Part shown: positions 45,331 through 60,911 of the stretch, one piece after another
How the letters are laid out: each line of letters begins with the position of its first letter
Position numbering within the stretch: position 1 is the first letter of the stretch
DNA from: Thermoanaerobaculia bacterium
Lineage (GTDB): Bacteria > Acidobacteriota > Thermoanaerobaculia > Gp7-AA8
Length of the DNA stretch: 64,000 nucleotides
Direction of reading: 5' to 3'
Assembly (NCBI GenBank): GCA_035544675.1
Contig: DATKCA010000283.1
Coordinates: 2,097 to 66,096 of the forward strand
Program-made: the position numbers and the translations under genes
The notes under the pieces: generated by a model
Seen by the model: the letters and a program-made list of their open reading frames with translations, nothing else
What the model was told of the DNA's origin: nothing
Database searches by the model: none

Positions 45331-46488
45331 ATGCAGGTCGTCCTCCAAGGGAACCTCACGAAATTCCCGCTCTCGCAGTTGCTCACGCTGTTGAGTGAGC
45401 ATTCGCACAGCGGCACGCTCGACATCGAGTCTGGTGCGAGCCGTGCGCGCGTTTTCATCGACGGCGGAAAGGTGATCTTCGCCGAGTCGAGCGATGGCAC
45501 GGCGGGCAATGCCGGTGAGGCTGTCGTCCGCACGTTCGAGTGGCCGGACGCGCAGTTCACGTTCCTTGACGGCATGTCGCTCCCGGACAAGGCCACGCGC
45601 GTGACGCTCGACGTGGAGTCGATCGTCGCGGAGGCGGCCAAGCGCGCCGAGGGAGGGTATGCCGACTACGCGATGTTCCGGGTGATCGACAATCCCGCCG
45701 CGCAGGAGAAGATCACGATCGCGCCGGAGGAATTCACGCTGCTCTTCAAGATCGGCATGGGAAAGACGTTCGGCGACCTGGTGAGCGAGCCGGGCGCGAC
45801 CCGCCGCGCCACCGGCGCGAAGCTGAAGATTCTCGAGAAAGCCGGTCTCGTGCTGCGCGTCGACCAGGCTGCACCGAGCATGATACCCGGCGCGTCGCAG
45901 AACACCGCCGAGACCCCGCGGCCGAAGGGCCGTGAAGAGCGGCGTCCACGCGCCCAAGCGCCCGCCGAGGGAGTCGAGAAAACGGTCTTCGCCCCGAAAG
46001 TGGATATGGCGGACGCGACGCAGTTCACACCGCCTCCCCCTCCCCCTCGCCAGCCCACTGACGAGATCCCGGCTCCCCTGGCCACCGAGAAGACGCAGGC
46101 CGGCGAGGTTCCCGTGCCGCCCGTGGCATCCGCGCCTCCCCCTCCGATCCTCGGCGACCCGAAGAACCTGTTCGGATCGCTCACGCCCGACAGCGGCGAT
46201 ACCTGGCCGCTGGTCGACAACGAGTACACGATCGGCCGCGACGACACGAACAGCATCCCCGTGCCCGACGGCAGCATCTCGTCGAAACACGCCCGTCTCC
46301 TCAGGAATGAACAGGGCTTCTGGGTCGAAGACCTCGGAAGCCGCAACGGGACCTTCGTCAACGGCGAGAAGGTGACGGACAAGCGACTTCTGTCGAACGG
46401 CGACCTGGTCCGCTTCGGCAAAGTGATCATGACCTTCCATATGGCGCAGGACAGCAGCTCGGACCAGACCGTCGTCGAGTCGAAATAG
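45331..46488 (+). CDS. DUF4388 (PATAN) domain + C-terminal FHA domain protein
   Basis: N-terminus GNLTKFPLSQLLTLLSEHSHSGTL is the DUF4388 hallmark. Pro-rich linker. FHA motifs (TIGRDD..SSKHARL..GSRNGTFVNG). Confidence 0.75.
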   Translation: MQVVLQGNLTKFPLSQLLTLLSEHSHSGTLDIESGASRARVFIDGGKVIFAESSDGTAGNAGEAVVRTFEWPDAQFTFLDGMSLPDKATRVTLDVESIVAEAAKRAEGGYADYAMFRVIDNPAAQEKITIAPEEFTLLFKIGMGKTFGDLVSEPGATRRATGAKLKILEKAGLVLRVDQAAPSMIPGASQNTAETPRPKGREERRPRAQAPAEGVEKTVFAPKVDMADATQFTPPPPPPRQPTDEIPAPLATEKTQAGEVPVPPVASAPPPPILGDPKNLFGSLTPDSGDTWPLVDNEYTIGRDDTNSIPVPDGSISSKHARLLRNEQGFWVEDLGSRNGTFVNGEKVTDKRLLSNGDLVRFGKVIMTFHMAQDSSSDQTVVESK

Positions 46489-46511: not shown

Positions 46512-48890
46512 ATGAAATTTGATCTAGTGATTGTCGGGTCCGGCCCGGCCGGTCTCGCCGCCGCGTCTCACGCTCACACCAACGGGATGAAGTACGTGCT
46601 GCTCGAGCGCGTCGATCACCTGTCGGACACGATCTATCAATATCAGGCTCGCAAGTACGTCATGGCCGAGCCGATGATGATCCCGGCGCGCGGCGACGTC
46701 CCGTTCGAGGCGGGATCGCGCGAGTCCATCCTCGAAGCCTGGGACAGGCACGCCGCGGACCGCCAGGTGAACATCGAGCTGAAGGCCGAGGTGAACTCGG
46801 TCGAGAAGACCGCGGACGGATTCGTCGTCGCCACGAAGGCCGGCAACAAGTACGAGACCGCGGCCGTGGTACTGGGGATGGGTACGCAGGGGAACCCGAG
46901 AAAACTCGGCGTGACCGGCGAGGATTTGCCTAACATCCGCTACCGCCTGAACGACGCGAAGGAACACCAGGAGCAGGACATCCTCGTGGTCGGCGCGGGC
47001 GACTCCGCGCTGGAGATCGCGGCCGCCCTCTCGGATGAGAACCGAGTCGGCCTGGTCGTGCGCGGCGCGGAGATCACGCGCGCGAACGAGGTGCTGACGC
47101 GCGACGCGCTGTCGCGGCAGGCCAGCGGCCGCATGACCATCTACTTCAACACGACGGTGAAGGAAGTCGGCGAGGGCTACGTCGATCTCAACGTGCGCGG
47201 GGACACCACGCGCATCCCCAATGAGCTGATCTTCCTCAAGCTGGGCGCCGACGCGCCGCGCAAGTTCCTCGAGAAAATCGGGATCAAGTACAGCGGACCG
47301 GGTGCCGACGCCCGGGCCATGCTGAGCCCGGTGCACGAGACGACCGTGCCGAAGCTGTTCCTCATCGGCGCGGCGAGCGGCCGCGACCTCATCAAGCTCG
47401 GCATGAACCAGGGCTATGAAGTCGTCGAGCACCTGATGGGCCGCGAGGTCGAGCCGGCCGACGAAGCAGTGCTCAGGGAGCGGCTGCCGTTCTGGGAAGG
47501 CACGGTCCGCGAGCGCATCGCCGCGATTCGGTCCCGCGCGCCGCTGCTCGCCGCCGCGGACGAACAGCAGCTCCGCGACACGTTCCTGTCCGCTCGCGTT
47601 CGCGAGTACAAGAACGGCGAGATCATCATCCGTCAGAACGACTACACCAACGACTTCCTCATCGTGGCCTCGGGGCGCGTCGAGCTCTATCGCCGGCCCG
47701 AAAAAACAAACGCCGACGTGAAAGTCGCCGAGATCACCGCCGGCAACTTCTTCGGCGAGATGAGCCTCATCTCCGGACGCCGCCGTACGGCCACGGCCAA
47801 GGCCATGGGGAACACGCGCGTGATCGAGATCCCGCGCAAGGCCATGCTGCGTCTTCTGGCGTCCTCGCCGAAGGCGAAAGCGCTCATGGACCAGGCCTTC
47901 CTGCTCCGCGCGTTCGGCGGCTACCTCTTCCCCGGCATCGCCGAGGGGGCGCTCGGCGAGCTGGTCGAGAAGGCCGTCGTCGAGAACATCGGCAAAGACG
48001 CGGTGGTGTTCAAGGAAGGCGATGCAGCGGAAGCGTTCTACCTGATCCGCAGCGGCATGATGAAGATCGCCAAGCAGTCGGGCGACAAGGAAGTCGTGCT
48101 CTCGTACCTGGTGGCCGGCAACTTCTTCGGCGAGGCCGCGCTCTTCTCCGATGCCGAGCGCACCGCTACCGTCAGCGCGATCTTCCCGGCCGAGCTGGTG
48201 AAGCTCTCCAAGAAAGACTTCGACAACTTCCTGGGCATCCGTCCCGAGCTGCGCGAGCTCCCGCTGCGCAAGCTCGAGGAGCGCCGCATCGCCGGCCTCA
48301 TCGCCGAGGCCACGCCGGGATCCGGCAACATCCTCTCCGACCTCATCCGCGAGGAAGTGGTCATGGGAACGCAGACCCTGGTCATCGACGAGCACCGCTG
48401 CGTGCGATGCGGGAACTGCGTCCGCTCCTGCGAGGGCGTGCACGACGACGGTCAGGCCCGCATCTCCCTCACCGGCATCAAGTTCTACAACCTCCTGGCG
48501 CCGAACTCGTGCTGGCAGTGCGAGAACCCGATGTGCATGCTGGACTGCCCGCCCGACGCCATCTCCCGCGATCCGCGCGGCGAGGTCTACATCAAGAGCA
48601 ACTGCATCGGCTGCGGCAACTGCGAGCGCAACTGCCCCTACGGCAACATCTTCATGGTCCACAAAGAGCCGAAGAAGTCGATCACCGGCTGGATCAAATC
48701 GATCTTCGGAAAAGGCAAGCACGAGGACGCGATCGAGCAGACCTTCGCCGTCAAGTGCGATCTCTGCCGTGGTATCTCCGGCGGCCCCGCATGTGTCCGC
48801 GGCTGTCCGACCGGAGCGGCAATCCGACTGACACCGGAGCAGTATCGGGAGACCCTGGAAGAGCTGGTCATTTCGCGAGGGGAGAGGTAG
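46512..48890 (+). CDS. fusion protein: thioredoxin-reductase-type FNR-like flavoprotein + 2x cyclic-nucleotide-binding domains + 4x [4Fe-4S] ferredoxin motifs
   Basis: Two Rossmann GxGxxG (VIVGSGPAGLAAA; LVVGAGDSALEIAAAL) without the TrxR CxxC. Two CAP_ED signatures (FFGEMSL..RRTATAKA; FFGEAAL..ERTATVSA). Four CxxCxxCxxxCP-like motifs (CVRCGNCVRSCE, CWQCENPMCMLDCP, CIGCGNCERNCP, CDLC...CVRGCP). Confidence 0.8.
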   Translation: MKFDLVIVGSGPAGLAAASHAHTNGMKYVLLERVDHLSDTIYQYQARKYVMAEPMMIPARGDVPFEAGSRESILEAWDRHAADRQVNIELKAEVNSVEKTADGFVVATKAGNKYETAAVVLGMGTQGNPRKLGVTGEDLPNIRYRLNDAKEHQEQDILVVGAGDSALEIAAALSDENRVGLVVRGAEITRANEVLTRDALSRQASGRMTIYFNTTVKEVGEGYVDLNVRGDTTRIPNELIFLKLGADAPRKFLEKIGIKYSGPGADARAMLSPVHETTVPKLFLIGAASGRDLIKLGMNQGYEVVEHLMGREVEPADEAVLRERLPFWEGTVRERIAAIRSRAPLLAAADEQQLRDTFLSARVREYKNGEIIIRQNDYTNDFLIVASGRVELYRRPEKTNADVKVAEITAGNFFGEMSLISGRRRTATAKAMGNTRVIEIPRKAMLRLLASSPKAKALMDQAFLLRAFGGYLFPGIAEGALGELVEKAVVENIGKDAVVFKEGDAAEAFYLIRSGMMKIAKQSGDKEVVLSYLVAGNFFGEAALFSDAERTATVSAIFPAELVKLSKKDFDNFLGIRPELRELPLRKLEERRIAGLIAEATPGSGNILSDLIREEVVMGTQTLVIDEHRCVRCGNCVRSCEGVHDDGQARISLTGIKFYNLLAPNSCWQCENPMCMLDCPPDAISRDPRGEVYIKSNCIGCGNCERNCPYGNIFMVHKEPKKSITGWIKSIFGKGKHEDAIEQTFAVKCDLCRGISGGPACVRGCPTGAAIRLTPEQYRETLEELVISRGER

Positions 48891-48918: not shown

Positions 48919-49749
48919 ATGGCAGTCCCACGATCCGGACCCACTTGGCGTCGCATTTTCGCCGTGCTGCTTTTTGCCGTGGCGGTCTCGTACGCGTACT
49001 ACGCGCGCGATGAGTTTCCGCACGGCGGGACGAAGATCGGTCTGACCCTCGGCATCATCGGGCTGCTGCTCATTCTCCTGCTCGCGTACTTCGGGATCCG
49101 GAAGCGCTCCTACCGCTCCACCTTCGGCACGCTCGAACAGTGGATGCAGTCCCACATCTACCTCGGCATCCTCGTGTTCGTGATCCTGCTGCTGCACACC
49201 GGCGGAAGGTTCAACGACCAGATCGCCGTGACGACGTTCATCCTCGTCGGAGCGGTGGTCCTCTCCGGGATTCTGGGAGCGATCCTCTATGTGACGGTCC
49301 CCCGGATGCTGACCGAGGTGGAGAGCAACCTCACCATCGAGGAGATCTCGGACAACGCCAACCAGCTGGCGCGGCAGATGGCGCGCACCGCCTCCGGCAA
49401 GTCGGCTCCGTTCCAGCGCATCTACGATGAGCTGATCTACGAGACGCGCCCGGGGTGGCTGGCCGGCTGGCGCCTGGTCATCTACAGCGCTCGAAAGAAG
49501 GGGCAGACCTCGTCGGACTGGGCGAATCTGCTGCGGCTCGTGCCGAAAGAGGAGCAGGACGAGCTCCGGTCCCTTCTGGTGACCTCGCGTCAGCGGAAGG
49601 AGCTGCTGCTTCGCCTGATGTATCAGCAGCGCTACAAGAACATCCTCGAGGCGTGGCTCTACATCCATGTTCCGTTCACGATCGCGTTGCTCGTCTTCTC
49701 GGCTCTGCACGTCGCGGCCGTTTTCTATTACGGGAGCGTGAGGTGGTGA
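48919..49749 (+). CDS. integral membrane protein, putative dihaem cytochrome b (ferric-reductase-like, two H-x13-H pairs)
   Basis: 5 predicted TM helices. TM3 SHIYLGILVFVILLLH and TM5 IHVPFTIALLVFSALH each carry two His spaced exactly 13 residues apart, as in bis-His haem b ligation of FRD/NOX/MsrQ-type proteins. Confidence 0.5.
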   Translation: MAVPRSGPTWRRIFAVLLFAVAVSYAYYARDEFPHGGTKIGLTLGIIGLLLILLLAYFGIRKRSYRSTFGTLEQWMQSHIYLGILVFVILLLHTGGRFNDQIAVTTFILVGAVVLSGILGAILYVTVPRMLTEVESNLTIEEISDNANQLARQMARTASGKSAPFQRIYDELIYETRPGWLAGWRLVIYSARKKGQTSSDWANLLRLVPKEEQDELRSLLVTSRQRKELLLRLMYQQRYKNILEAWLYIHVPFTIALLVFSALHVAAVFYYGSVRW

Positions 49750-49753
49750 GCGC

Positions 49754-52087
49754 ATGAGTTACGTCATCCAGCTCGTCCAGGGCCGGGCCCTCAAGCTCAC
49801 GCAGGTTCGTGCTGACGTGCTCCGCATCGGACGCGGAACCAATGCCGACGTCCGCTCGGACAATCCTGCCGTCGCGTTCGAGCACGCCATCATCGAGAAG
49901 GATTCCGGCGGGTACTACACGATCATCGACAAGGGCAGCATCACCGGCACCTACGTCAACCGCAAGCCCGTGGAGCAGCAGCGCCTCGGCAAGGGCGACG
50001 TCATCGAGGTCGGTGACCTGCGCATCGAAGTTCAGGTTGCGGACACCACCAAGCCGCTCTTTCTCCGCCAGCTCTCTTCGCGCCGGCAGGCCGCGGCGCC
50101 CGGATATGCAGACGTTGGCGAGGACACCGGTTCCGGGTATCAGGCTGAAGCAGGAACCGGCACGATCGCAGCCGAGAAGGTCGACTACGTCGATGCCTAC
50201 GCGCTGCGGCGTCCCTGGCTGCACAAGTCGACCGTCGCATCGATCCTCCTGATCATCGCCCTGGGCGTGGTCGGCGAGGTCACGCAGGAGGACAAGCAGA
50301 GCGTGTTCATGCCCGGCGGCGTCTCGTCGGCGCACTCGCGCGCCCGCGACGCCCAGGGCAATAGCATCGCCGAGCGATGCGCCGCCTGTCACACTCCGTG
50401 GAAGAGCATCACCGACGACAAGTGCGCACAGTGCCACGCCATGGCGCCGCATGCCACGCACGAGCTGAAGGCGCCGGCATGCTTCACCTGCCACTCCGAG
50501 CATCGCGGGCTGGCCAGGCTGGCGGCCATTCCCGACGTGCGCTGCAACGAGTGCCACAAGGACCTCAGCAAGCACGTCAAGACGAGCCCGGACGAGCTGG
50601 CCAAGCTGCGTTTCGCGGATGGCCGTTACAGCTTCGCGGAGATCCAGAAGATCAACGCATTCGGCGACGTGCATCCCGAGTTCGTCTTCCCGGCCGATAC
50701 GAACACGCTCAAGTTCAACCACAAGCTGCACCTCGCCCCGAACGGCGTCTTCAACGCCACGGGGCGGCGCGAAGTCCTGGCCTGTAACGACTGCCATAAC
50801 CTGGTGGACGTCCGCGGCAAGGTCGATCCGGTCCAGCTCCAGTTCGATACTCACTGCCAGCGTTGCCACAAACTGACGTTCGACCCGCGCTTCCCGCGGG
50901 CCGAGGCGCCGCACGGTGGCGATCCGGGGCTGGTGTACGGATTCGTTCTGGCCACGTACGCGGGGAACACCGAGCTGGCGGGCAAGTCCGCCGTCGAGGT
51001 GCGGCGCCTCTTGTCCCAGCGGCAGGTGGTGGCACCCGATCAGCGCGCGCTGCTCAATGCCGAGCAGGTCATCAAGACCAAATGCGACAAGTGCCATGAC
51101 CTGGAACGGCGCGGCCCCAACAATCAGCTTGCCGCCGTGCCGCCGAAGATCCCCACCACGTGGTTCGCCGCCTCCGACTTCGAGCACGGCGCCCACAAGC
51201 AGATCAGCTGCGAGCAGTGCCACGACAAGGTCCGCCAGAGCGTCCCCACCAGCGACGTGCACATGCCGACGCGCGAGGACTGCACGGAATGCCACGGGAC
51301 GAAGGCCGCGCCCGGTGTCAAGCAGACATCGAGTGCATGCGTGGCCTGTCACGACTATCATTTGCGGACTGATCAGACCAAACCGATAGTATTGGCAGCG
51401 GGACTCGCGGGCACGGCAGGGCCGGCGGGCGCACTGCTCGATCCCGCCAGCGGAGGGCGAATGCTTCAGACCATTCTCATCGCAGCAATCATTGTCCTGC
51501 TCTTCGTGGTCTTCATCCCGCTCGGCGCCGCGCTTTATCAGCGTCTGAAACCGTCGCGCACGGCCACTCCGCGAGGAGCCGCTCCGGCCAAGGGACCCAC
51601 GGTGAAGGTACCGCCGATGTCCGCTCCGCCCATGCAGGCCCCTTCGGCTCCGGCCGAGCCGCCGCAGCGCGCATCCGCTCCCCGTCCGCCGGCCGAGGCC
51701 GCGCCCACACAGATGCTCAATCTCGACGCCATCAAGCCTCCGGCCTCGGGCCCCGTAGCGGGCGGTGCGACGGAGATGCTGCAGTGGTACGGAATGCTCC
51801 GATGCACTTCCGGCCCGCTGGACGGGCAGAATTTCATCATCGAGGAGGACGGCTTCTACATCGGCCGCGATTCGACGATGTCGAAAGTCGTGATCAACGA
51901 CGGGCGCGTGTCGAAGAGGCACGTGAAGATCCAGCCGCGAAACGGGAAGGTGTTCGCCATCGATGAAGGATCGACGAACGGCACGTTCCTCACCGCGGGC
52001 GGGCAGCGCATCACCGAACACCAGCTCAAGCGCGGGGACACTCTGATTCTGGCCGACAACGCTGCCACATTCGTGTATCAGATCTGA
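49754..52087 (+). CDS. inner-membrane protein: N-terminal FHA - TM - periplasmic decahaem cytochrome c domain (10x CxxCH) - TM - Pro-rich linker - C-terminal FHA
   Basis: FHA1 in aa 1-95 (IGRGTNADV..FEHAII..ITGTYVN). TM helices at aa 161-176 and 570-596 with positive-inside flanks. CxxCH at aa 209, 224, 243, 264, 344, 368, 444, 486, 510 and 529. FHA2 in aa 676-777 (YIGRD..SKRHVKI..GSTNGTFL). Confidence 0.8.
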   Translation: MSYVIQLVQGRALKLTQVRADVLRIGRGTNADVRSDNPAVAFEHAIIEKDSGGYYTIIDKGSITGTYVNRKPVEQQRLGKGDVIEVGDLRIEVQVADTTKPLFLRQLSSRRQAAAPGYADVGEDTGSGYQAEAGTGTIAAEKVDYVDAYALRRPWLHKSTVASILLIIALGVVGEVTQEDKQSVFMPGGVSSAHSRARDAQGNSIAERCAACHTPWKSITDDKCAQCHAMAPHATHELKAPACFTCHSEHRGLARLAAIPDVRCNECHKDLSKHVKTSPDELAKLRFADGRYSFAEIQKINAFGDVHPEFVFPADTNTLKFNHKLHLAPNGVFNATGRREVLACNDCHNLVDVRGKVDPVQLQFDTHCQRCHKLTFDPRFPRAEAPHGGDPGLVYGFVLATYAGNTELAGKSAVEVRRLLSQRQVVAPDQRALLNAEQVIKTKCDKCHDLERRGPNNQLAAVPPKIPTTWFAASDFEHGAHKQISCEQCHDKVRQSVPTSDVHMPTREDCTECHGTKAAPGVKQTSSACVACHDYHLRTDQTKPIVLAAGLAGTAGPAGALLDPASGGRMLQTILIAAIIVLLFVVFIPLGAALYQRLKPSRTATPRGAAPAKGPTVKVPPMSAPPMQAPSAPAEPPQRASAPRPPAEAAPTQMLNLDAIKPPASGPVAGGATEMLQWYGMLRCTSGPLDGQNFIIEEDGFYIGRDSTMSKVVINDGRVSKRHVKIQPRNGKVFAIDEGSTNGTFLTAGGQRITEHQLKRGDTLILADNAATFVYQI

Positions 52088-52096
52088 GGGATATCG

Positions 52097-53806
52097 ATGC
52101 GTGCATTCTTGACTACTTCTGCGGCGATCCTTCTTGCCTCCCTGGCCGGCGCTCAGGTGCCGAACCCCGAACCGGAATCGTGCAGCGCGCCCCTGAGCGC
52201 GGTGGCCCGCTGTTCGGAGGCCGAGGGTGGAGGAGAGGAGTTCGACTCGCTCAACCCGGCCGAGATCGACGCCATCGTGAAGGCCGCGGCGAGCGCAACC
52301 AACCGCACCGACCTCACCATCGCCGTGGTCGACCGGGCCGGCCGTCCGCTGGCTCTCTTCCGCCAGCCCAACGCCGATCCCGAGAACGACGACAAGGCCG
52401 TGGGCGTGGCCAGGACCACGGCGTTCTTCAGCCACAACCAGGCCCCGCTGTCCTCGCGCACCGTCCGGTTCATCAGCGCGATCCATTTTCCCACCGGGGT
52501 CACCAACACCAACAGCGCGGCGCTGTATGGCATCGACAACACCAACCGCGGCTGCGACTTCAACGTCGTGTTCAACGAAGGCAAGTGCACGCCCCGCGCG
52601 CGCAGCCTCAACGGACGCCCCTGCAATGCCTTCGACACGAGCGGGTGCGGACAGGGAATCGTCACCGGCAAGATCTTCCCGGGTGACGAGATCCAGCAGT
52701 CGGTGAACGCGGGCGGCATCCCGCTGTTCCGCATCCTGAATCTGACCGAGGCCGACCAGGGTCGCGTCTCCGAAGGAAAGATGATCGGCGGCATCGGCGT
52801 CGTCGGCATCTCCGAGGATCCCAGAGAGGAAGATCCGCAGATCACCGAATACGCCGCGGCGACGGGGGCGTTCGGCGCTCTCAACGCCGGCGTCGGGGCC
52901 ATCGTCCCCGTGCCCCAGTTTCCCCTGCCGAAGCCGGGTAACGTCTTCATCGACGGCATCCGCCTCCCCTTCCTCGGCCGCGACATCACGCTGCGGTTCA
53001 ACGAGGACGGTCTGCCGACTGGCGTGCTGCTGGCGGGGATCCAGGCTGGCACCGATGCCGGCGAATACGCGATCGCGCCGCGCAACGGCGGATGCGCCGC
53101 GAACGGCTACCTGGTCGGGCCTCTGGCCGGCTCGAGACTGACGGCCGCTGAAGTCGACGCGATCGTTCGCCGCGCCGACTCCGCCGCCAAGAGAACCCGC
53201 GCGGCGATCCGCCTCCCGCTCAATCGCTACGCGCGGATGGCCATCGCGGTGGCCGACCTGGACGGGACGCTCCTGGCCGTCTACCGGATGCCGGATGCGA
53301 CGATCTTCTCCACCGACGTATCTGTGGCCAAGGCGCGCAACGTCGTCCACTTCAGCACTTCGACCGATCTGGCGGGCGTGCCGGCGGGAACCGCGGTCAC
53401 CAACCGATCCATCGCGTTCGGCAGCCACCCCTTCTTCCCGCCGGGCATCGACGGGCGCAACTTCAAGCCCCGCCCCGGTCCCTTCTTCGAGTCGATCTTC
53501 GTGCGCGATCTCAACAATCCCTGCTCCCAGGGACTGCAGCCGGCCAACGCCAATCAGAGCGGCATCGTCTTCTTCGCCGGCTCGACGCCGCTGTTCCGCG
53601 GCAACGAGATGATCGGCGGCCTGGGAGTATCCGGCGACGGCATCGAGCAGGACGACTACGTGACGTTCCTCGGCGCGGGAGAGTTCCTGCCGCCCCGGGA
53701 GCGGTGGGCGGACCGCATCATCATTGATAAGGTCCGGCTGCCGCAGTACAAGTTCCCAAGACAACCGGAAGGCGTCACAGAATGTGGAGGTGGACCGTGC
53801 GACTGA
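52097..53806 (+). CDS. secreted protein with two GlcG/HbpS-like (DUF336, haem-/cofactor-binding) domains
   Basis: Signal peptide. Two segments resembling the DUF336 core (IDAIVKAAASAT..DLTIAVVDRAGRPLALFR..AVGVARTTAFF and VDAIVRRADSAAKRT..RMAIAVADLDGTLLAVYRM..SVAKARNVVHF). Confidence 0.6.
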   Translation: MRAFLTTSAAILLASLAGAQVPNPEPESCSAPLSAVARCSEAEGGGEEFDSLNPAEIDAIVKAAASATNRTDLTIAVVDRAGRPLALFRQPNADPENDDKAVGVARTTAFFSHNQAPLSSRTVRFISAIHFPTGVTNTNSAALYGIDNTNRGCDFNVVFNEGKCTPRARSLNGRPCNAFDTSGCGQGIVTGKIFPGDEIQQSVNAGGIPLFRILNLTEADQGRVSEGKMIGGIGVVGISEDPREEDPQITEYAAATGAFGALNAGVGAIVPVPQFPLPKPGNVFIDGIRLPFLGRDITLRFNEDGLPTGVLLAGIQAGTDAGEYAIAPRNGGCAANGYLVGPLAGSRLTAAEVDAIVRRADSAAKRTRAAIRLPLNRYARMAIAVADLDGTLLAVYRMPDATIFSTDVSVAKARNVVHFSTSTDLAGVPAGTAVTNRSIAFGSHPFFPPGIDGRNFKPRPGPFFESIFVRDLNNPCSQGLQPANANQSGIVFFAGSTPLFRGNEMIGGLGVSGDGIEQDDYVTFLGAGEFLPPRERWADRIIIDKVRLPQYKFPRQPEGVTECGGGPCD

Positions 53807-55797
53807 GAGTCTCCCTCGTCGCCCTCCTCCTCCTTCTCACAGCCCTCACCATCAGCGCCCAGGTCACGATCAATCGTGACCGCGCCGTCTTCACCGGCGA
53901 AGTCCCCTTCACGCTCTGGGGCACCGCTCCGCCGAACTCGGTCGTGACGATCACGGTCGACTCTCCGGGCCTGCAGCCGGTGACGACGGCGGCGGGTCCG
54001 GACGGCTCGTGGAGCGTGCTCTGGACGCAGCCGCTGCGGACCGGCGTGTACGGGATTACCGTGACGGCGGGCGGCGCGACGTCGACGCAGGACCTGCGCG
54101 TGCAACTGGAAGGCAACGTGGCCCGGCAGCCCCAGATCGTCGAAGAGCCGCGTTTCGCCATCCCGCGCGTTTACGACATGGATGAGAACACGGAGCTGAC
54201 GGACCGGTGGCGGATCGTGCCGCCTCCGTACGAGCTCGACGAGCCGCCGCGGGGGCGGAAGATCGGCGACCGTGGCGCGACGCTCGATCCGTACAACAAG
54301 AACCTGCTCAAAGGCGATTACCCCATCCGCGGCAAGGACACGTTCCTCGTGCTGACGGGAATCTCCGACACCACCATCGAGTCGCGGTCTCTGCCGACGC
54401 CTTCCGGTCCCAGCGCCGCCCGGGTGGACAGCTTCACGTTCTTCGGCGACAACGATCAGGGCATGGTGATCCAGAACCTGATCCTCACGGCCGATCTCTA
54501 TCAGGGGCTGACCACGTTCCAGCCGGTACGGCAGCGCTTCAGAGTCACGGCAATCGGGAACTATACCCACCTGAACGTCGCCGAGAACTCGGTGGTGAAG
54601 CCGGACGTGCGGCGTGGCACCGAGCGAAACGACGGCCGCCTTTCGGTGCAGGAGTTCTTCTACGAGCGCAAGCTCGCCGACCTCAGCCCTTACTTCGACT
54701 TCGTGTCGGTCCGGGCCGGCTCGCAGCAGTTCTCCAGCGACTTCCGCGGCTTCGTCTTCTCGGACACGAACCTGGGCGTGCGCCTCTTCGGCAACTACGG
54801 CTCGAACCGCTATCAGTACAACCTGGCCGCCTTCGAGCGGCTGGAGAAGGACACGAACAGCGGCCTGAATCGAAACTTCGTTTTCCGCGAACAGCAGGTG
54901 GGCGTGGCCAACGTCTACATCCAGGACTTCATCCGGAAGGGGTACACGCAGAGCTTCTCGATCACTCATCAGCGGGACCGGCCGGGCGAAAAGCTGCACT
55001 TCGATCGCAACGGGATCCTGGTACGTCCCGCTCCGATCGGCTCGTTCACCCCGCACGACATCGACGCGACGTACGTCGGCCAGGCCGGGTTCGGACACTT
55101 CGGCCGGCTGAATGTGGATCACGCGCTGTACTACGTGTTTGGCAAAGACAGCCACAATCCGATCGCCGGGCCCGATCCGGAGCTGCGGCGAGGCGACGAG
55201 ATCGACATCAGCGCGGGGATGGCGGCGGTCGAGCTGTCGTACGACCGCGACTGGCTCCGGCCGCGCTTCGCGTTGTTCTACGCGTCCGGCGACAGCAAGC
55301 CGCGCGACCGTACGGGCACCGGCTTCGACTCGATCTTCGACGGTCCCGCCTTTGCCGGCGGCGGCTTCAGCTTCTTCAACCGCCTGGGCATCCGTCTGTC
55401 GCAGACCGGCGTCGCGCTCGTGGATCGCGGCAGCCTCATCACCTCGCTGCGCAGCAGCAAGGACGAGGGGCAGTCGAACTTCGTCAACCCGGGCGTGCAG
55501 CTCGTCAGCCTGGGGCTGGACATCGAGGTCACGCTGCGGCTCAAGGCCATCCTGACCGCGAACTACATCAGGATGGACAGCACGGCTGCGGTCGAGGAGC
55601 TTCTGTTCCAGGGGGACATCGACAACGAGCTGGGCGCTGATCTGAGCGTCGGCCTGCGGTACCGGCCGTTCTTCACTCAGCAGTGGATCGTGGTGGGCGG
55701 CATCGCCGGATTCATTCCGGGACGGGGCTTCAAAGACATTTACGAGAGCGACAACCCGCTCTATCACGTGTTCTCCAACATCATTTTGCAGTTCTGA
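53782..55797 (+). CDS. putative outer-membrane beta-barrel protein (~670 aa) with N-terminal Ig-like domain
   Basis: Signal peptide (LVALLLLLTALTISA-QV). Alternating beta-strand pattern over ~500 aa. C-terminal ...NIILQF (terminal Phe, OMP sorting signature). Size comparable to MtrB/PioB-class porins. Confidence 0.5.
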   Translation: MWRWTVRLRVSLVALLLLLTALTISAQVTINRDRAVFTGEVPFTLWGTAPPNSVVTITVDSPGLQPVTTAAGPDGSWSVLWTQPLRTGVYGITVTAGGATSTQDLRVQLEGNVARQPQIVEEPRFAIPRVYDMDENTELTDRWRIVPPPYELDEPPRGRKIGDRGATLDPYNKNLLKGDYPIRGKDTFLVLTGISDTTIESRSLPTPSGPSAARVDSFTFFGDNDQGMVIQNLILTADLYQGLTTFQPVRQRFRVTAIGNYTHLNVAENSVVKPDVRRGTERNDGRLSVQEFFYERKLADLSPYFDFVSVRAGSQQFSSDFRGFVFSDTNLGVRLFGNYGSNRYQYNLAAFERLEKDTNSGLNRNFVFREQQVGVANVYIQDFIRKGYTQSFSITHQRDRPGEKLHFDRNGILVRPAPIGSFTPHDIDATYVGQAGFGHFGRLNVDHALYYVFGKDSHNPIAGPDPELRRGDEIDISAGMAAVELSYDRDWLRPRFALFYASGDSKPRDRTGTGFDSIFDGPAFAGGGFSFFNRLGIRLSQTGVALVDRGSLITSLRSSKDEGQSNFVNPGVQLVSLGLDIEVTLRLKAILTANYIRMDSTAAVEELLFQGDIDNELGADLSVGLRYRPFFTQQWIVVGGIAGFIPGRGFKDIYESDNPLYHVFSNIILQF

Positions 55798-55811
55798 GGG
55801 ACGAGGCTTAG

Positions 55812-58800
55812 ATGAAGAAGACGTTCTTCGTAGTGCTCATTGCGGCGGCGGTTGCGGCGACGTTGTTTGCCGCCACTCAGCAGGGTGAGCCCGTCCGCGC
55901 GCCTCAGACCTCGCCGCTCATGGGCCAAACCCAGGCCCAGGCGGACGAGAAGAGCAGCGGCTGTCTTTCGTGTCATGAAGGCATCGAGCCGATGCACGCA
56001 TCCGCGGCGGTGAAGCTCGGATGCACGGACTGCCACGGCGGGAACGCGGGGGTCATGGCCAGTCGCATCGACGACGAGGACGCCAAGAACCGCGCCCACA
56101 TCCTGCCCCGGAACAAGGAGATCTGGAAGACGTCCAGGAATCCCGTGGGAACGTACACGGCCCTGCTGAAGGAGTCTGCCGAGTTCGTGAAGTTCATGAA
56201 CCCGGGCGATCTGCGCGTGTCGAAGGAAACGTGCGGCGATTGCCATCCGCAGCAGGTGGCGGCCGTGCCGCGAAGCACGATGTCCACCGCCGCCGTCTTC
56301 TGGGCGGCCGTCTCCTATGCGAACGGCCTGATCAGCAAGAAGCCCGGCCTGCTCGGCGAGAGTTACAACCGGGAAGGGAATCCACAGATCCTCCGCCCGG
56401 CCGTGCCGCCCACGCCCGAACAGATTGCCAAAGGCGCGCTGCCGCTCGTCGTCCCTCTGCCTCGTTGGGAGATCTTCCAGCCAGGGGAGTACTTCCGCGC
56501 GTTCGAGCGAGGCGGTCTCCTGAACAACACCATTCCGCCGGAAGTCGGCAATCCGAATCCGCTGCTGGGCGACGAAGCAGGGAAGCCGGACATCCGCGTC
56601 AGCAACCGCGGCCGCGGCACGGGAAGCCGTGTCTCGCCGGGCCTGATCAACCTGCAGAAGACCCGTCTCAACGATCCGCACCTCTCATTCCTCGGGACCA
56701 ATGAGCATCCCGGCGACTATCGCTCCAGCGGCTGCACGGCATGCCACGTGGTGTACGCGAACGACCGTGATCCGCTTCACTCCGGACAGTGGGCGAAGTA
56801 CGGGCACGTCGGCCTGTCGCAGACCGGCGACAAGACGATCCCGAAAGACGAGAAGGGTCATCCCATCAAGCATCAGTTCACGCGCGCCGTGCCGACGTCT
56901 CAGTGCATGAGCTGTCACATGCACCAGCCGAACTCGTTCGTGAACACGTACCTCGGCTACCTGATGTGGGACTACGAGAGCGACGGCGAGCTGATGTGGC
57001 CGAAGGAGCAGAAGTACCCGACTCCCGACGAGCGCCGGAAGAGCCTCGATCACAACCCGGAGGGCGCCGCGGTCCGCGGACTCTGGACGGACATCGACTT
57101 CCTGGAGCGCGTCAGCAGCCTGAACCCGCAGGCCAAGAACACGCAGTTCGCCGACTACCACGGCCACGGCTGGAACTTCATGGCCGTGTTCAAGCGCGAC
57201 AAGAAGGGCAACTTCCTCGACGCCAACGACACGATCGTGTCGAAGGACGACCCCGAGAAGTTCAAGAAGGCCGTGCACCTGCGTGACATCCATCTCGAGC
57301 GCGGCATGCACTGCTCCGACTGCCACTTCTCGCGGGACGAGCACGGCGACGGCCAGTTGTACAGCGAGTACGGAACGAACATCGAGATCGAGTGCCAGGA
57401 CTGCCACGGGCGGCTCGATCGCAACACCAACCTGCGGACCTCCGGGCCGCTCGCGCCGCCGGGAGGAACGGACCTCCGTCTGGGGACCACGCCGTTCGGC
57501 CAGCGTCGCTTCATCTGGTCCAACGGGATCCTCTATCAGCGCTCGATGGTGAACCCGGGCATGGAGTGGGTGGTGCGCCAGGTCAGGGACACCGTCACGC
57601 GGGGTCACCAGCACTACAACGACAAGTCGCATTACGCGAAGACGGTGCAGCGCGGCGGCGCCGGGTGGGGCAACACCAGCAACGTCGCTCACAGCGAAGA
57701 CAAGATCACGTGTTACGCCTGCCACTCCTCGTGGATGACGTCGTGCTTCGGCTGCCATCTCCCGCAGGAGCAGAATGCCAGGTCGAACGCCCTGCACTAC
57801 GAAGGGACGGAGACGCGCAACTACGCCTCTTACAACCCCCAGGTTCTCCGCACGGATGTGTTCATGCTCGGCGTGAACAGCCCGCTCAAGGGAGCCAAGA
57901 TCGCTCCGGTGCGCTCATCGAGCGCCCTGACGCTCAGCTCGATCAACCCGAACCGGCAGCGCATCTACATCCAGCAGGCTCCGATCTCCGCGCCGGGCTA
58001 CAGCAGCCAGGCCTTCAACCCGCACGTTCCCCATACGGTGCGCAGCAAGGAGACGCAGGCCTGCAGCTCGTGCCACATCAGCGAGGCGAACGACAACAAT
58101 GCCTGGCTGGCCCAGACATATCTGCAGGGAACGAACTTCGTCAACTTCGTCGGCCGGTTCGCCTGGGTGGCCACGGGTGACGACGGGTTCGAAGCGATTG
58201 CGGTGACGGAGTGGGAGGAGCCGCAGGCGGTCATCGGGTCGTATCTGCACAAGCTGGCCTATCCCGACTGGTACGCGAACCATCAGAAGCGCAAGAAGGA
58301 GCTGGCCGAGGGATATCACCATCATGGCCACGCCAAGATGGTGCAGTTGCGGGGCGAGTATCTGTATGCCGCGAACGGCGACAGAGGCTTCGAGGCCTAC
58401 GACGTCGCCAACGTCGACAACAAGGACTTCTCCGAGCGCATGATCTCGGCGCCGTCGTCGCCGATCGGGCAGCGCACGTTCATCAAGTCGAAGTACGCCG
58501 CGGCGTTCTCGCTGCCGACGAACATGCCCATCGACCCGACGCGCGAGACGACATCGATCCCCGAGAACCAGGAACAGCCGTGGCATCCGCTGTACCGCTA
58601 TGCGTACATCGCCGACAAGTATGAGGGTCTCATCCTCGTCGACGTCACGACGCTGACCGACGGCGATCCTCTGAACAACTTCTTCACGCGCGCGCTGACG
58701 TGGAATCCGGAAGACCGGCTGCACGGCGCGCAGTCGATTCACGTGGCCGGGCGGTGGGTGTACATCGGCACGGAGAAGGGGCTGGCCATCGTCGACGTCG

Positions 58801-59543
58801 ATCAGCCCCTGGCTCCGAAGCTCGTGGCCTACATGCCCGAGATCAAGAAGGCCACCGGCATCGCGGTGCAGTTCCGGTATGCCTTCGTGACCGACGGCCA
58901 GGCCATTCACACAATCAACGTCACCGATCCGACACGGCCGCGTCTGACCGCGTCCCTCCCTCTGGAGGAAGCGCGCAATGTCTACGTGGCCCGGACCTAC
59001 GCATATGTGGCGGGTGGGAAACAGGGTGTGATCATCGTGGACATCGAGCGCCCGGAGGCGCCGAAGATCGATCAGATCTACAACGCCGACGGCGAGCTGC
59101 ACGACGTGTACGACGTCAAGGTGGCCTCTACGAATGCCAGCACGTATGCATACGTCGCCGACGGTGAGCACGGCATCAAAGTCCTGCAGCTCTCCTCACC
59201 GGAGTGGGGCCCGAACTACGCCGGCTTCAGTCCGCGGCCGATGCCGCAGCTGATCGCCAAGCGGCATACGCACGGCAAGGCCGTGTCCATCTCCAAGGGA
59301 ATGGACCGCGACCGCGCCGTCGATGAGAGCGGCAACCAGGTCTCGATCTTCAACCGCATCGGGTCACGGCCGATGACGACCCCGGAACTGCAGCGGCTGT
59401 ACATGCGCGACGGCCGCATCTACACGGTCAGCGATAGACCTTCCACGCGACCACAGGGAAGCACGACGGTCACTGAGAACCCTGCGACCAAGCCGCAGGT
59501 ACCAGTGGTCCAGAAACCTGCCACGAAGCCGGTGACGAGGTGA
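55812..59543 (+). CDS. secreted decahaem c-type cytochrome fused to LVIVD-repeat beta-propeller region
   Basis: Signal peptide. Ten CxxCH (CLSCH, CTDCH, CGDCH, CTACH, CMSCH, CSDCH, CQDCH, CYACH, CFGCH, CSSCH) in first ~780 aa. C-terminal 450 aa with LVIVD-like repeats (GLILVDV, GLAIVDVDQP, YAFVTDGQAIHTINV, YAYVAGGKQGVIIVDI, YAYVADGEHGIKVLQL). Confidence 0.8.
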   Translation: MKKTFFVVLIAAAVAATLFAATQQGEPVRAPQTSPLMGQTQAQADEKSSGCLSCHEGIEPMHASAAVKLGCTDCHGGNAGVMASRIDDEDAKNRAHILPRNKEIWKTSRNPVGTYTALLKESAEFVKFMNPGDLRVSKETCGDCHPQQVAAVPRSTMSTAAVFWAAVSYANGLISKKPGLLGESYNREGNPQILRPAVPPTPEQIAKGALPLVVPLPRWEIFQPGEYFRAFERGGLLNNTIPPEVGNPNPLLGDEAGKPDIRVSNRGRGTGSRVSPGLINLQKTRLNDPHLSFLGTNEHPGDYRSSGCTACHVVYANDRDPLHSGQWAKYGHVGLSQTGDKTIPKDEKGHPIKHQFTRAVPTSQCMSCHMHQPNSFVNTYLGYLMWDYESDGELMWPKEQKYPTPDERRKSLDHNPEGAAVRGLWTDIDFLERVSSLNPQAKNTQFADYHGHGWNFMAVFKRDKKGNFLDANDTIVSKDDPEKFKKAVHLRDIHLERGMHCSDCHFSRDEHGDGQLYSEYGTNIEIECQDCHGRLDRNTNLRTSGPLAPPGGTDLRLGTTPFGQRRFIWSNGILYQRSMVNPGMEWVVRQVRDTVTRGHQHYNDKSHYAKTVQRGGAGWGNTSNVAHSEDKITCYACHSSWMTSCFGCHLPQEQNARSNALHYEGTETRNYASYNPQVLRTDVFMLGVNSPLKGAKIAPVRSSSALTLSSINPNRQRIYIQQAPISAPGYSSQAFNPHVPHTVRSKETQACSSCHISEANDNNAWLAQTYLQGTNFVNFVGRFAWVATGDDGFEAIAVTEWEEPQAVIGSYLHKLAYPDWYANHQKRKKELAEGYHHHGHAKMVQLRGEYLYAANGDRGFEAYDVANVDNKDFSERMISAPSSPIGQRTFIKSKYAAAFSLPTNMPIDPTRETTSIPENQEQPWHPLYRYAYIADKYEGLILVDVTTLTDGDPLNNFFTRALTWNPEDRLHGAQSIHVAGRWVYIGTEKGLAIVDVDQPLAPKLVAYMPEIKKATGIAVQFRYAFVTDGQAIHTINVTDPTRPRLTASLPLEEARNVYVARTYAYVAGGKQGVIIVDIERPEAPKIDQIYNADGELHDVYDVKVASTNASTYAYVADGEHGIKVLQLSSPEWGPNYAGFSPRPMPQLIAKRHTHGKAVSISKGMDRDRAVDESGNQVSIFNRIGSRPMTTPELQRLYMRDGRIYTVSDRPSTRPQGSTTVTENPATKPQVPVVQKPATKPVTR

Positions 59544-60871
59544 TAGCGATGAAGAGACTCATTCCGGGTGCGGTCGTAGCTCTCCTGTTGATAGCTTCCG
59601 TGGCCGCTCAGCAGCCAGCCACCACTCCTCCGCCCGCGCCCACCGCCACTCCACCGGCAGGAACGGTCGGCAAGTACGTCGGCGTGGCCTCGTGTGTGAA
59701 CTCCGGCTGCCACGGCAGCACCGAGCCGCTCAACCAGACTCGGGCGCTTCAGAACGAGTACTACACGTGGTTGAACAACGACCGTCACGCGCAGGCGTAC
59801 AACGTCCTGTTCAACAACGTTTCGGCGCGCATCGCCAAGAACATGCGTCTTCGCAGAAGGGCGTATGAAGAGAAGATGTGCCTGGACTGCCATACCACCA
59901 ACGTTGCTGCCAGCCAGGTCGTCGGCAACATCGACCCCGAGGACGGCGTGCAGTGCGAGGCCTGTCACGGGCCGGCCAGCGGCTGGCGCGACGAGCACAC
60001 CCAGCTCGGATGGACGCACGCAGACTCGGTCCGGCGCGGTCTGAACGATCTCCGCGACGTCTCCCGCCGCGGCGAGCAGTGCCTCACCTGCCACCTCGGT
60101 AATGCCAGCAAGGAAGTCGACCACGACCTCATCGCGGCCGGGCATCCCATCCTGGCCTTCGAGCTCGACAACTACACCGAGTCGATGCCGCCGCATTGGA
60201 CCGCGGGCCGCGAGTCCCACGGACTCCGGGCCTGGGCCGTCGGACAGGTCGTGAAGTTCCGTGACTCCCTCGACAACGTGGCTCGACACGCCCGCGGCGA
60301 CAAGTGGCCGGAGTTCGCGGACATGAGCTGTTACAACTGCCATCACGGGCTGAAGGCCAGCACGTGGAGGCAGGAGCGCGGCTGGCCGGATCGTCCCGGC
60401 CTCCCGGCCTGGAGCCCGCAGCACTGGGCGGCCCTGCGCATCCTGATCGCGAGGATCTCGCCGCAGGTGCGCAACGAGCTGGACCCGGTCGTCCGCGACC
60501 TCTCCATCGCCGTGGCGCGGATGAACAACCGTGATGCCATCGTGACCAGCGCTCAGCGGGCCCGCCGCCTCGTCGAGCCGCTCGTGGCCAGGGCCGAGGC
60601 CATCTCCTGGAATGACGCCGACGTGCGCACGATGATGCGCGCCATCGCCGACGACCGCGAGTTCATCCTGGCCTCCGACGTTCACGCCGCCGAGCAGGCC
60701 GCGCTGTCCCTGCAGAGCCTTTCCACGACGCTGACCCGCCGCGACCGCAGGCTGCTGCGCTCGACCATGACCCGCGCCATCGACGCGCTCTTCGAAGAGC
60801 TGGAAAGCCGCGACGACTACGACCCGGCCAGGTTCGCGCAGAAGCTGCAGGCCGTCAGAGCAACGCTGTAA
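59540..60871 (+). CDS. secreted pentahaem c-type cytochrome (4x CxxCH + 1x CX4CH)
   Basis: Signal peptide + Pro/Thr linker. CVNSGCH (CX4CH), CLDCH, CEACH, CLTCH, CYNCH. Start overlaps upstream stop. Confidence 0.72.
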   Translation: MIAMKRLIPGAVVALLLIASVAAQQPATTPPPAPTATPPAGTVGKYVGVASCVNSGCHGSTEPLNQTRALQNEYYTWLNNDRHAQAYNVLFNNVSARIAKNMRLRRRAYEEKMCLDCHTTNVAASQVVGNIDPEDGVQCEACHGPASGWRDEHTQLGWTHADSVRRGLNDLRDVSRRGEQCLTCHLGNASKEVDHDLIAAGHPILAFELDNYTESMPPHWTAGRESHGLRAWAVGQVVKFRDSLDNVARHARGDKWPEFADMSCYNCHHGLKASTWRQERGWPDRPGLPAWSPQHWAALRILIARISPQVRNELDPVVRDLSIAVARMNNRDAIVTSAQRARRLVEPLVARAEAISWNDADVRTMMRAIADDREFILASDVHAAEQAALSLQSLSTTLTRRDRRLLRSTMTRAIDALFEELESRDDYDPARFAQKLQAVRATL

Positions 60872-60911
60872 GCCTTCCTCTTTGGAGCGCCGCCGAGTCG
60901 GCGGCGCTCCA

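Follow-up and report, generated by a model that had tools for sequence, protein, structure and literature searches.

The window analysed here is a stretch of 64,000 nt from the Thermoanaerobaculia bacterium assembly GCA_035544675.1 (contig DATKCA010000283.1), and all coordinates refer to it. Eight genes on the plus strand, g1 to g8 (Table 1), form one operon-like run at 45331-60871. The intergenic gaps from g2 to g8 range from -25 to +28 nt; g7 starts 14 bp past the end of g6, and the start of g8 overlaps the stop codon of g7 by 4 nt. A scan of 44000-62000 for promoters and terminators gave nothing above the shuffled expectation. The GC3 values of g6, g7 and g8 (0.87-0.89), together with thousands of homologues for each at 60-77% identity, identify these three as genuine genes. 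CXXCH motifs occur 10, 10 and 4 times in the three cytochromes of the run, whereas the amino-acid composition of each protein predicts 0.01-0.02. No lipobox is present in the secreted proteins of the window (g5, g7 and g8 were checked).

Table 1. Genes of the operon-like run and features within the proteins that they encode
Feature	Position in window	Strand	Residues	Description
g1	45331..46488	+		385 aa, DUF4388/PatA_N and FHA regulatory protein (Pfam FHA 2e-21, DUF4388 1.9e-15)
g2	46512..48890	+		792 aa, FAD/NAD(P)H oxidoreductase domain, two cNMP-binding domains, C-terminal poly-[4Fe-4S] ferredoxin domain
g3	48919..49749	+		5-TM inner-membrane protein with two WX3HX13H motifs
g4	49754..52087	+		777 aa, FHA-TM-10 CXXCH-TM-FHA, inner-membrane-anchored decahaem
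g5	52097..53806	+		569 aa, secreted, two HbpS-like/DUF336 domains
g6	53782..55797	+		671 aa, signal peptide, Ig-like domain, predicted 18-strand outer-membrane barrel
g6 Ig-like domain	53866-54102		29-107	
g6 linker			~139-186	conserved, unmodelled
g6 barrel	54340-55794		187-671	18 strands
g6 insert	55285-55494		502-571	conserved, 70 aa, between strands 13 and 14
g7	55812..59543	+		1243 aa, Sec-exported decahaem fused to LVIVD beta-propeller
g7 haem sites	55962-58076		51-755	
g7 beta-propeller	58155-59297		~782-1162	LVIVD, ~7 blades
g8	59540..60871	+		443 aa, pentahaem c554-like cytochrome
g8 CX4CH site	59693-59713		52-58	CVNSGCH
g8 CXXCH sites			114, 139, 181, 264	four sites

The cytoplasmic end of the run is represented by g2, which lacks a TM helix. 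It matches Pfam Pyr_redox_3 over the full profile (7e-38), cNMP_binding in two stretches (1e-42) and both Fer4_7 and Fer4_11, the last (PF13247, 4.5e-6) at the C-terminus; the gene lies 4.9 kb upstream of g7 and directly upstream of g3. The paired motifs of g3 are W75-H79-H93 and W246-H250-H264, with SGILG at 116, and at least two HX13H motifs are present in 34 of 35 homologues. There is a weak match to Pfam Ferric_reduct, and g3 is a putative dihaem-b carrier of the ferric-reductase (NOX/FRE) type.

The first-pass annotation had taken the decahaem upstream of the barrel to be periplasmic and had placed the barrel gene directly after it; neither point was borne out. The ten CXXCH motifs of g4 (residues 209-533, a spacing of ~32 residues per haem) lie between TM helices at 156-174 and 574-592, with a cytoplasmic FHA domain at each end, and the protein is not free in the periplasm. 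The gene immediately upstream of the barrel is g5, a double HbpS-like/DUF336 protein (PF03928, 4.4e-26, two stretches) that has no haem motif; of the solved structures, EfgA and the PduO C-domain are closest to it. Orthologues of g5 with a lipobox were seen only in loci of the Nitrospirota type (L021, L033 and L047).

As described from the first reading, which gave ~670 aa, a signal peptide and a terminal ILQF, g6 has a hydrophobic N-terminus and ends in NIILQF, with a terminal Phe. Structure prediction agrees with the proposal of a transmembrane beta-barrel: the model, of moderate confidence (pLDDT 72.5), is a closed antiparallel fold of 18 strands and belongs to the substrate-channel class. 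A soluble beta-sandwich was considered for the protein and rejected, the sandwich being limited to residues 29-107. The 18 strands come from only ~485 residues, the first 107 residues of the protein being signal peptide and Ig-like domain, and the earlier placing of g6 in the size class of 26-28-strand barrels does not stand. No Pfam or NCBIfam family matches the barrel part, and searches of PDB sequences with single sequences and with family profiles matched the Ig-like domain alone. The protein has no haem motif. Its loops, outward-facing by topology, are strongly conserved, the 70-aa insert included, and the conserved positions are rich in acidic residues. Exposed loops are not usually so conserved, and a lumen with the loops folded into it would fit; the two most conserved non-strand segments (139-186 and 502-571) are absent from the model, and an occupied lumen is therefore something that we infer.

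The ten CXXCH motifs ascribed to g7 are all present, and 20 of its 20 Cys residues lie in them. Its C-terminal LVIVD propeller was likewise recovered, both by Pfam (E 1.1e-19) and in the AF2 model, where ~27 strands are built with pLDDT ~90; a Pro/Thr/Lys tail that follows is not conserved. Only the propeller of this model is usable, the cytochrome part falling below pLDDT 50. Foldseek with the model returned generic propellers only, surface lipoproteins among them, and PDB sequence searches (single sequence and family profile) gave no match to the cytochrome part. Among 26 sequences from several phyla all ten haem sites are near-invariant, which answers the call for a check of motif conservation in orthologues, as are 261 positions distributed over both the cytochrome part and the propeller. 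The signal is of the Sec type only; among 57 homologues a single lipobox-like match was found, positioned before the hydrophobic segment. Because of this signal, the ~76 residues per haem and the near-invariant positions in both parts, g7 appears, as judged from sequence, to be enzyme-like rather than wire-like. The propeller showed no candidate for a catalytic metal site.

The haem motifs of g8 also conform to the first description, with the unusual CX4CH preceding four CXXCH sites. They account for 10 of 10 Cys residues, and the C-terminal half of the protein is haem-free. The possibility that the CX4CH is a sequencing artefact was raised and is ruled out: all 120 of the close homologues compared retain the motif, it recurs in other phyla, and in loci L028, L031 and L072 the orthologues have an ordinary CXXCH at the aligned position. 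This alignment also indicates a real haem site. At domain level only, g8 belongs to cytochrome c554: Pfam Cytochrome_C554 is matched at 2.8e-12 (47.8 bits against a cut-off of 20.8), the PDB match to Nitrosomonas c554 (1bvb) is weak (3.5e-6), and the NCBIfam c554 equivalog scores 23.9 against a cut-off of 400.

The barrel family of g6 comprises 1504 clusters at 50% identity and is found at more than 590 genome loci. In 61 of the 64 related loci long enough to tell, from MAGs labelled Acidobacteriota, Planctomycetota, Nitrospirota and Omnitrophota, g7 follows g6 directly on the same strand, at a median gap of 12 bp; the linkage of barrel and decahaem proposed from a single locus is thus tight and specific across phyla. 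In the 38 loci with at least 8 kb on both sides, g7 is present in 38, g5 in 34, g3 and g4 in 25-27, g2 in 25 and g1 in 13, and a Nitrospira MAG carries the full set. Two extra nonahaem cytochromes of ~300 aa, with MtrA-like haem density, occur in 21 related loci, including the Pyrinomonadaceae loci examined. In the one annotated Pyrinomonadaceae locus (L043) g2 lacks the FAD/NAD(P)H domain, and tblastn matches to g2 in many other loci from outside the Thermoanaerobaculia cover the cNMP/Fer4 part only, so the electron source is not uniform. Genes g6-g8 make up the outer end of a putative electron-transport operon of eight genes, which recurs in several bacterial phyla.

The first-pass annotation had called the arrangement Mtr-like. 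The pairing of barrel and decahaem is real, and, as in MtrCAB, MtoAB and PioAB, an outer-membrane barrel gene adjoins decahaem genes in an operon that could span the cell envelope; the relationship to Mtr was not sustained. The barrels of those systems have 26 strands against 18 in g6, and no protein of the window matches the MtrB_PioB, MtrA/DmsE or MtrC families above cut-off. For TIGR03508 (MtrA/DmsE) g4 scores 23.7 bits and g8 23.2 bits against a cut-off of 192, and the Mtrc-MtrF_II-IV domain reaches 21 bits in g8, below the cut-off of 30. MtrA/DmsE is a periplasmic decahaem of ~330 aa, whereas g4 is anchored by its two TM helices; MtrA has ~33 residues per haem, less than half the spacing in the propeller-bearing g7. 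There is no counterpart of the surface lipoprotein decahaems of the MtrC/OmcA type, g7 and g8 lacking a lipobox, and in place of the CymA/quinol input of MtrCAB, electrons would enter through an Fe-S flavoprotein and a dihaem-b protein of the NOX/FRE type.

The broader label of porin-cytochrome cluster is appropriate in that published surveys would class such a cluster under it. Of the operational criteria of Otero et al. (2018), a periplasmic multihaem (g7 and g8, both with signal peptides) and an outer-membrane barrel (g6) are present, while the lipobox of a further criterion is lacking in the window's g5, g7 and g8. He et al. (2017; PMC5566968) described the inner-membrane protein (IMP) of PCC3 and PCC4 as having 5 TM segments, SGXXG on TM4 and WX3HX13H on TM3 and TM5, and g3 carries this full motif set. 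As in PCC4 subgroup II, an Fe-S gene (pfam13247) lies upstream of the IMP gene, here g2 before g3; PCC4 also combines a porin with periplasmic cytochromes of 5 and 10 haems, and has Planctomycetes among its carriers. The PCC4 cytochromes have 4, 5 and 10 haems, whereas those found here have 10 (membrane-anchored), 10 (with the propeller) and 5, with no tetrahaem. A later paper reported co-occurrence of petB/petC-type bc1 components with PCC4; there are no bc1 genes here.

Two recent genomic descriptions come close to parts of the operon. In a study of MAGs from the Sterkfontein karst (PMC13264449; FEMS Microbiol Ecol 2026), which is purely genomic, clusters of a large decahaem, a ~20-strand porin and often a ferredoxin-NADP reductase, with carriers including Acidobacteriota and Planctomycetota, were grouped as putative porin-cytochrome systems, group 1. 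By description only, g7 (3.7 kb, 10 haems) beside the 18-strand g6, with the FAD/NAD(P)H domain of g2, resembles this group, although its decahaem genes are of 4-5 kb and the account has no propeller, DUF336 protein, FHA domains or barrel fold class. A cluster of Ferrigenium straubiae, called novel and of unknown function (bioRxiv 10.64898/2026.01.22.701106), encodes a [4Fe-4S] protein, a 5-TM protein and an FHA-nonahaem, the same three-gene inner-membrane module as g2-g3-g4. Its cytochrome carries a single FHA domain and a single TM helix where g4 has two of each, and a barrel and decahaem-propeller are not described there.

Likenesses to other outer-membrane systems concern g6 and g7. Geobacter ExtB, from the genetically validated conduit cluster extABCD, is also a predicted barrel of 18 strands. 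In its cytochrome part g7 shows weak similarity to ExtM, a cytochrome of 12 haems, over three collinear stretches; the score of 92 bits is far below the equivalog cut-off of 800 (NCBIfam NF040943). The Geobacter Ext clusters (ExtABCD; ExtHIJKLMNOPQS) differ in including lipoprotein cytochromes and a Rieske/cytochrome b pair, and the propeller fusion seen in g7 is not in the published descriptions examined; nor was the g6-g7 protein pair found in literature searched on LVIVD/multihaem/porin combinations. In fold, g6 shares the closed 18-strand channel of AlgE and OprD/Occ. Identity to these is 9-13%, with no match to Pfam Alginate_exp or OprD, nor to a PDB entry when the family profile was used as query, and g6 has in addition the N-terminal Ig-like domain, the conserved linker and the conserved insert.

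The reading that we favour, at somewhat short of an even chance, is that the eight genes encode a cytoplasm-fed electron-export chain ending at a g7 docked on the barrel, with the substrate reaching it through the g6 channel. The cytoplasmic flavo-Fe-S protein g2, probably gated by its two cNMP-binding domains, would feed electrons to the dihaem-b protein g3, which would hand them across the inner membrane to the anchored decahaem g4, where the FHA domains suggest phospho-regulation. The pentahaem g8 would act as periplasmic relay, and g7 may be the terminal oxidoreductase, an obligate pair with g6, remaining in the periplasm at the mouth of the barrel. The channel would then be a port giving an external substrate, small or chelated, access to the haems of g7, with Fe(III)/Mn chelates or some other small oxidant as candidates. 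The proposed working logic is that of a split Cyc2, a small barrel with a docked cytochrome at its periplasmic mouth, rather than that of the insulated Mtr-type wire through a wide barrel. Cyc2 itself, which acts in Fe(II) oxidation, joins barrel and cytochrome in one chain and has a single haem; in the present case the parts are split over two genes, the haems number 10 and the flow is probably outward. Gene order, domains, barrel fold class, haem sites and cross-phylum linkage form the established part of this proposal; the physical contact of g6 with g7, the location of g7, outward flow and the substrate are what we infer. The non-uniform input at g2 counts against the proposal, as does the quinone link that He et al. 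(PMC5566968) proposed for this kind of membrane protein.

A trans-outer-membrane wire of the Mtr/Pio type, in which g6 sheathes a haem-bearing stretch of g7 or a small dense cytochrome and the propeller or terminal haems contact minerals, humics or partner cells at the surface, is unlikely. The operon provides an unbroken multihaem series from inner to outer membrane, the small nonahaems added in the 21 related loci have the haem density of MtrA, and the literature files such clusters as PCCs. LVIVD propellers are typical of cell-surface proteins, which fits an extracellular g7 and counts against a periplasmic one. The 18 predicted strands of ExtB, in a validated conduit, favour such a wire and weigh against the docked arrangement.

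Equally improbable in our view is that g6 serves as an AlgE/OprD-type channel for diffusion of a specific substrate and makes no stable contact with g7, which would be a free periplasmic multihaem enzyme with its active or binding site in the propeller; the ligand of g5 would then be a small molecule or a tetrapyrrole. This reading is favoured by the fold class of g6 and by the enzyme-like conservation, low haem density and Sec-only signal of g7; the solved DUF336 relatives, by PDB molecule names and Pfam family name, bind small molecules or haem. That g6 and g7 are almost always adjacent, and at so short a gap, points to co-translation and assembly into a complex more than to mere membership of one pathway; the conserved linker and the Ig-like domain of g6, on the periplasmic side, resemble docking elements, and the propeller offered no candidate metal site.

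It is also conceivable, if rather doubtful, that the operon is a quinone-independent, NOX-like export machine, passing electrons from NAD(P)H or ferredoxin through the Fe-S flavoprotein, dihaem-b protein and multihaems to a channel-docked cytochrome-propeller enzyme, under cNMP and FHA/phospho-threonine switching. Pyrinomonadaceae, Nitrospira and Planctomycetota are generally regarded as aerobic soil and freshwater bacteria, and because carriers include such lineages the role would not be respiration; it could lie in acquiring iron or manganese by reduction, or in controlled reduction or ROS chemistry outside the cell. If true, this would be a bacterial counterpart of the eukaryotic FRE/STEAP/NOX systems, extended over two membranes.

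That g6 is a two-partner-like export or anchoring pore, moving the propeller or the whole of g7 to the surface, is very improbable: it has no POTRA domain and no match to the Omp85/TpsB family, it matches AlgE/Occ clearly better than FhaC, and we know of no precedent for a folded cytochrome, already loaded with haem, being exported through a pore of 18 strands. Incidental adjacency of an ordinary porin to cytochrome genes, to which the absence of a haem motif and of an annotated family from the barrel might point, is almost certainly wrong, being contradicted by the pair kept in nearly all of the 64 loci, from several phyla, and by g7 in every long-flank locus.

The system is common, as the size of the barrel family shows, and its carriers include Acidobacteriota, Planctomycetota and Nitrospirota. 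These phyla are abundant in soil and water, and to our knowledge their extracellular redox chemistry is essentially unstudied. Similar clusters are already known, as genomic descriptions, from the 2017 and 2026 papers, and each step of the proposed path now has concrete, testable components. If g6 and g7 work as a pair, they would add to Mtr/Pio and the Geobacter Omb/Ext systems a third, non-homologous design by which electrons reach or cross the outer membrane. The input module could draw on NAD(P)H or Fe-S carriers instead of the quinone pool, and such an input, together with regulation by its cNMP and FHA domains, would make for a novel mode of control over electron export.

The eight genes at 45331–60871 of the window lie on a single strand, and intergenic distances within g2–g8 span -25 to +28 nt.

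Genes of the cluster and neighbouring ORFs (positions in the window)
Gene	Position	Strand	Product and features
Two ORFs	40457–43430		Resemble dnaK and dnaJ (N-terminal sequence reading only); short way upstream of operon
g1	from 45331	+	DUF4388 + FHA
g2	46512–48890	+	792 aa; FAD/NAD(P)H domain (Pyr_redox_3, full profile), two cNMP-binding domains, poly-[4Fe-4S] ferredoxin domain
g3	between g2 and g4	+	5-TM; W75x3Hx13H, S116GILG, W246x3Hx13H
g4	49754–52087	+	FHA-TM-decahaem-TM-FHA; TM helices 156–174 and 574–592
g5	directly 5' of g6	+	569 aa; secreted, double HbpS-like/DUF336; nearest solved relatives EfgA and PduO C-domain
g6	53782–55797	+	671-aa barrel protein; hydrophobic N-terminus, end NIILQF, no Cys
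g7	55812–59543	+	1243-aa decahaem-LVIVD propeller; ten CXXCH
g8	59540–60871	+	443-aa pentahaem; CVNSGCH at residue 52, CXXCH at 114, 139, 181 and 264
One ORF	61763–63412	-	Resembles citrate synthase (sequence reading only); downstream of operon

The three consecutive ORFs g6, g7 and g8, found where the first-pass annotation had placed them, are real genes, as indicated by a GC3 of 0.87–0.89 (window GC 65%) and very many homologues of each at 60–77% identity; the 100% matches are to a Thermoanaerobaculia (Acidobacteriota) MAG. The first in-frame ATG of g6 overlaps the 3' end of g5 by 25 nt (53782–53806) and the public annotation begins five codons downstream (666 aa), so the exact start position could differ by a few codons. 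The haem motifs far exceed the 0.01–0.02 CXXCH per protein expected from composition, and every Cys in g7 and g8 lies within one. Pfam matches confirm the LVIVD repeats of g7 (E 1.1e-19) and identify a Cytochrome_C554 domain in g8 (E 2.8e-12).

Immediately 5' of the barrel gene, a periplasmic decahaem had been described. That position is occupied by g5, and the decahaem, g4, is anchored in the inner membrane by a helix pair bracketing the haem domain, with FHA at both cytoplasmic ends (a double-FHA form). In g2, the union of oxidoreductase, cyclic-nucleotide-binding and ferredoxin domains in one protein suggests cNMP gating of electron input. The motif set of g3 reads as the dihaem-b signature of ferric-reductase/NOX-type domains.

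An AlphaFold2 model of g6 (50-sequence alignment; pLDDT 72.5, pTM 0.64) predicts a real beta-barrel rather than a soluble sandwich, in the substrate-channel fold class. A signal helix, an Ig-like sandwich (residues 29–107) and an unmodelled linker precede 18 long antiparallel strands (residues 187–670), with a low-confidence 70-residue insert between strands 13 and 14. Nearly 190 residues are not in the barrel, which places g6 outside the 26–28-strand size class of MtrB/PioB to which it had been assigned. For the barrel part, Pfam and NCBIfam gave no family match, and the PDB gave no relative by sequence even when a family profile was used. The C-terminal Phe is invariant. Loops facing outward by topology, including the insert, rank with the most conserved parts, and conserved positions are acid-rich (17 Asp and 5 Glu vs 10 Arg and 3 Lys); loops folded into the lumen would fit this better than exposed ones. 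Two of the most conserved stretches, residues 139–186 (54196–54339) and 502–571 (55285–55494), read DRWRIxPPPYELDE... and FAGGGFSFFNRLGIRL...; both lack His, Met and Cys, and AlphaFold was unable to place them (pLDDT <50). These stretches may serve as a plug, as a constriction or for docking of a partner.

The g6 family comprises 1504 clusters at 50% identity (E<=1e-3), or 394 at E<=1e-30. A barrel-alignment genome scan recovered >590 loci. The best 80 of these carry the MAG labels Thermoanaerobaculia, Holophagae, Blastocatellia/Pyrinomonadaceae, Bryobacteraceae, Terriglobia, Planctomycetota, Nitrospira/Nitrospirae, Omnitrophota and 'delta proteobacterium', and the barrel core (residues ~139–671) retains 45–50% identity between phyla. 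Of 64 loci whose sequence extends 1.5 kb or more past the barrel, 61 have a g7 homologue 3' of g6 on the same strand (median gap 12 bp); the two form an obligate gene pair. Among the 38 loci flanked on each side by 8 kb or more, g5 is present in 34, g4 in 27, g2 and g3 in 25 each and g8 in 18; the complete set occurs in a Nitrospira MAG. In addition, 21 related loci, including the Pyrinomonadaceae loci examined, contain a pair of nonahaem c7/c3-type cytochromes (~300 aa), and 17 encode an extra 266-aa protein. In one Pfam-annotated Pyrinomonadaceae locus (L043; 304–2910, 4306–7486) the g2 homologue has no FAD domain and is apparently fused to the 5-TM protein; adjoining its DUF336 gene are two ~300-aa nonahaem c7/c3-type cytochromes, a tetrahaem and a 247-aa non-haem protein. 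A clear lipobox (e.g. LAASCGSEGG) occurs in g5 orthologues of Nitrospirota-type loci (L033:7612–9384, L047, L021) and is absent from the window copy, so membrane attachment seems lineage-dependent.

The CX4CH of g8 is kept, with four CXXCH, in 120/120 homologues among the matches listed (62–77% identity), mostly as C-x-[NS]-[SA]-G-C-H. It occurs also in MAGs labelled Nitrospira, Phycisphaerales, Planctomycetaceae and Terriglobia, and aligns with an ordinary CXXCH in three more distant orthologues. This conservation, its persistence across phyla, the alignment and the lack of free Cys rule out a sequencing artefact and mark it as a genuine fifth haem site carrying a two-residue insertion. Class III cytochromes c3 have CX4CH sites too, which makes the motif uncommon rather than new. 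All complete g7 orthologues have ten haem sites, one being CX4CH or CX3CH in some (L024, L027, L029, L035 and others; many Blastocatellia, Planctomycetota and Terriglobia orthologues). In L001 (11907–15454 of a 1.88-Mb contig) the g7 gene is broken into four ORFs (356, 255, 99 and 471 aa), probably by assembly frameshifts rather than as a real pseudogene.

The operon encodes a contiguous set of redox proteins placed in the cytoplasm, inner membrane, periplasm and outer membrane. Electron flow would most likely be outward, since the FAD/NAD(P)H and Fe-S protein adjoins a dihaem-b protein of the NOX type and electrons moving outward follow the membrane potential; gating of this flow is suggested by the cNMP and FHA domains. 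For g6 and g7 we tentatively prefer, at slightly less than even confidence, a model in which g7, probably the terminal oxidoreductase, is kept on the periplasmic side docked onto g6; the barrel would then be the port through which a small or chelated substrate gains access from outside, in a split, Cyc2-like logic. The model is suggested by a Sec signal only (a lipobox-like match in 1/57 full-length homologues, placed before the hydrophobic segment), ~76 residues per haem, enzyme-like conservation (261 near-invariant positions across 26 cross-phylum sequences, spread evenly over cytochrome and propeller) and the character of the g6 loops. A true trans-barrel, Mtr-like wire is unlikely but stays a serious rival, because LVIVD propellers are typical surface modules, Foldseek matches include surface lipoproteins, and Geobacter ExtB, with 18 predicted strands, belongs to a genetically validated conduit cluster. 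It is similarly doubtful that g7 is a free periplasmic enzyme and g6 an independent channel, the two genes being an obligate pair. An export pore is improbable, and adjacency by chance scarcely credible.

'Porin-cytochrome' therefore holds in the broad sense; 'Mtr-like' does not, as Pfam, NCBIfam and structural tests for the Mtr families were all negative. Motif for motif, g3 corresponds to the inner-membrane protein (IMP) of the hypothetical PCC3/PCC4 clusters of He et al. (2017; PMC5566968), and in PCC4 subgroup II an Fe-S gene lies upstream of the IMP gene, as g2 precedes g3. The PCC4 cytochrome set differs, and the bc1-type components reported alongside PCC4 in a later paper are absent here. 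A purely genomic karst MAG survey (PMC13264449, 2026) described a putative PCC group with a large decahaem beside a ~20-strand porin, often near a ferredoxin-NADP reductase gene, which the present cluster fits by description only. A 2026 Ferrigenium preprint (bioRxiv 10.64898/2026.01.22.701106) called a [4Fe-4S]/5-TM/FHA-multihaem module novel, of unknown function, and the FHA-multihaem combination previously unreported. The 12-haem ExtM of Geobacter shows weak collinear similarity to the cytochrome part of g7 (92 bits vs a cut-off of 800). The decahaem-propeller fusion, barrel fold class, DUF336 partner and cross-phylum pairing were not described in the literature searched. The cluster is a widespread, uncharacterised porin-cytochrome variant with an unusual input and regulatory module, and merits experimental follow-up. 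It does not amount to a categorically new type of system, and MAG surveys had already glimpsed it.
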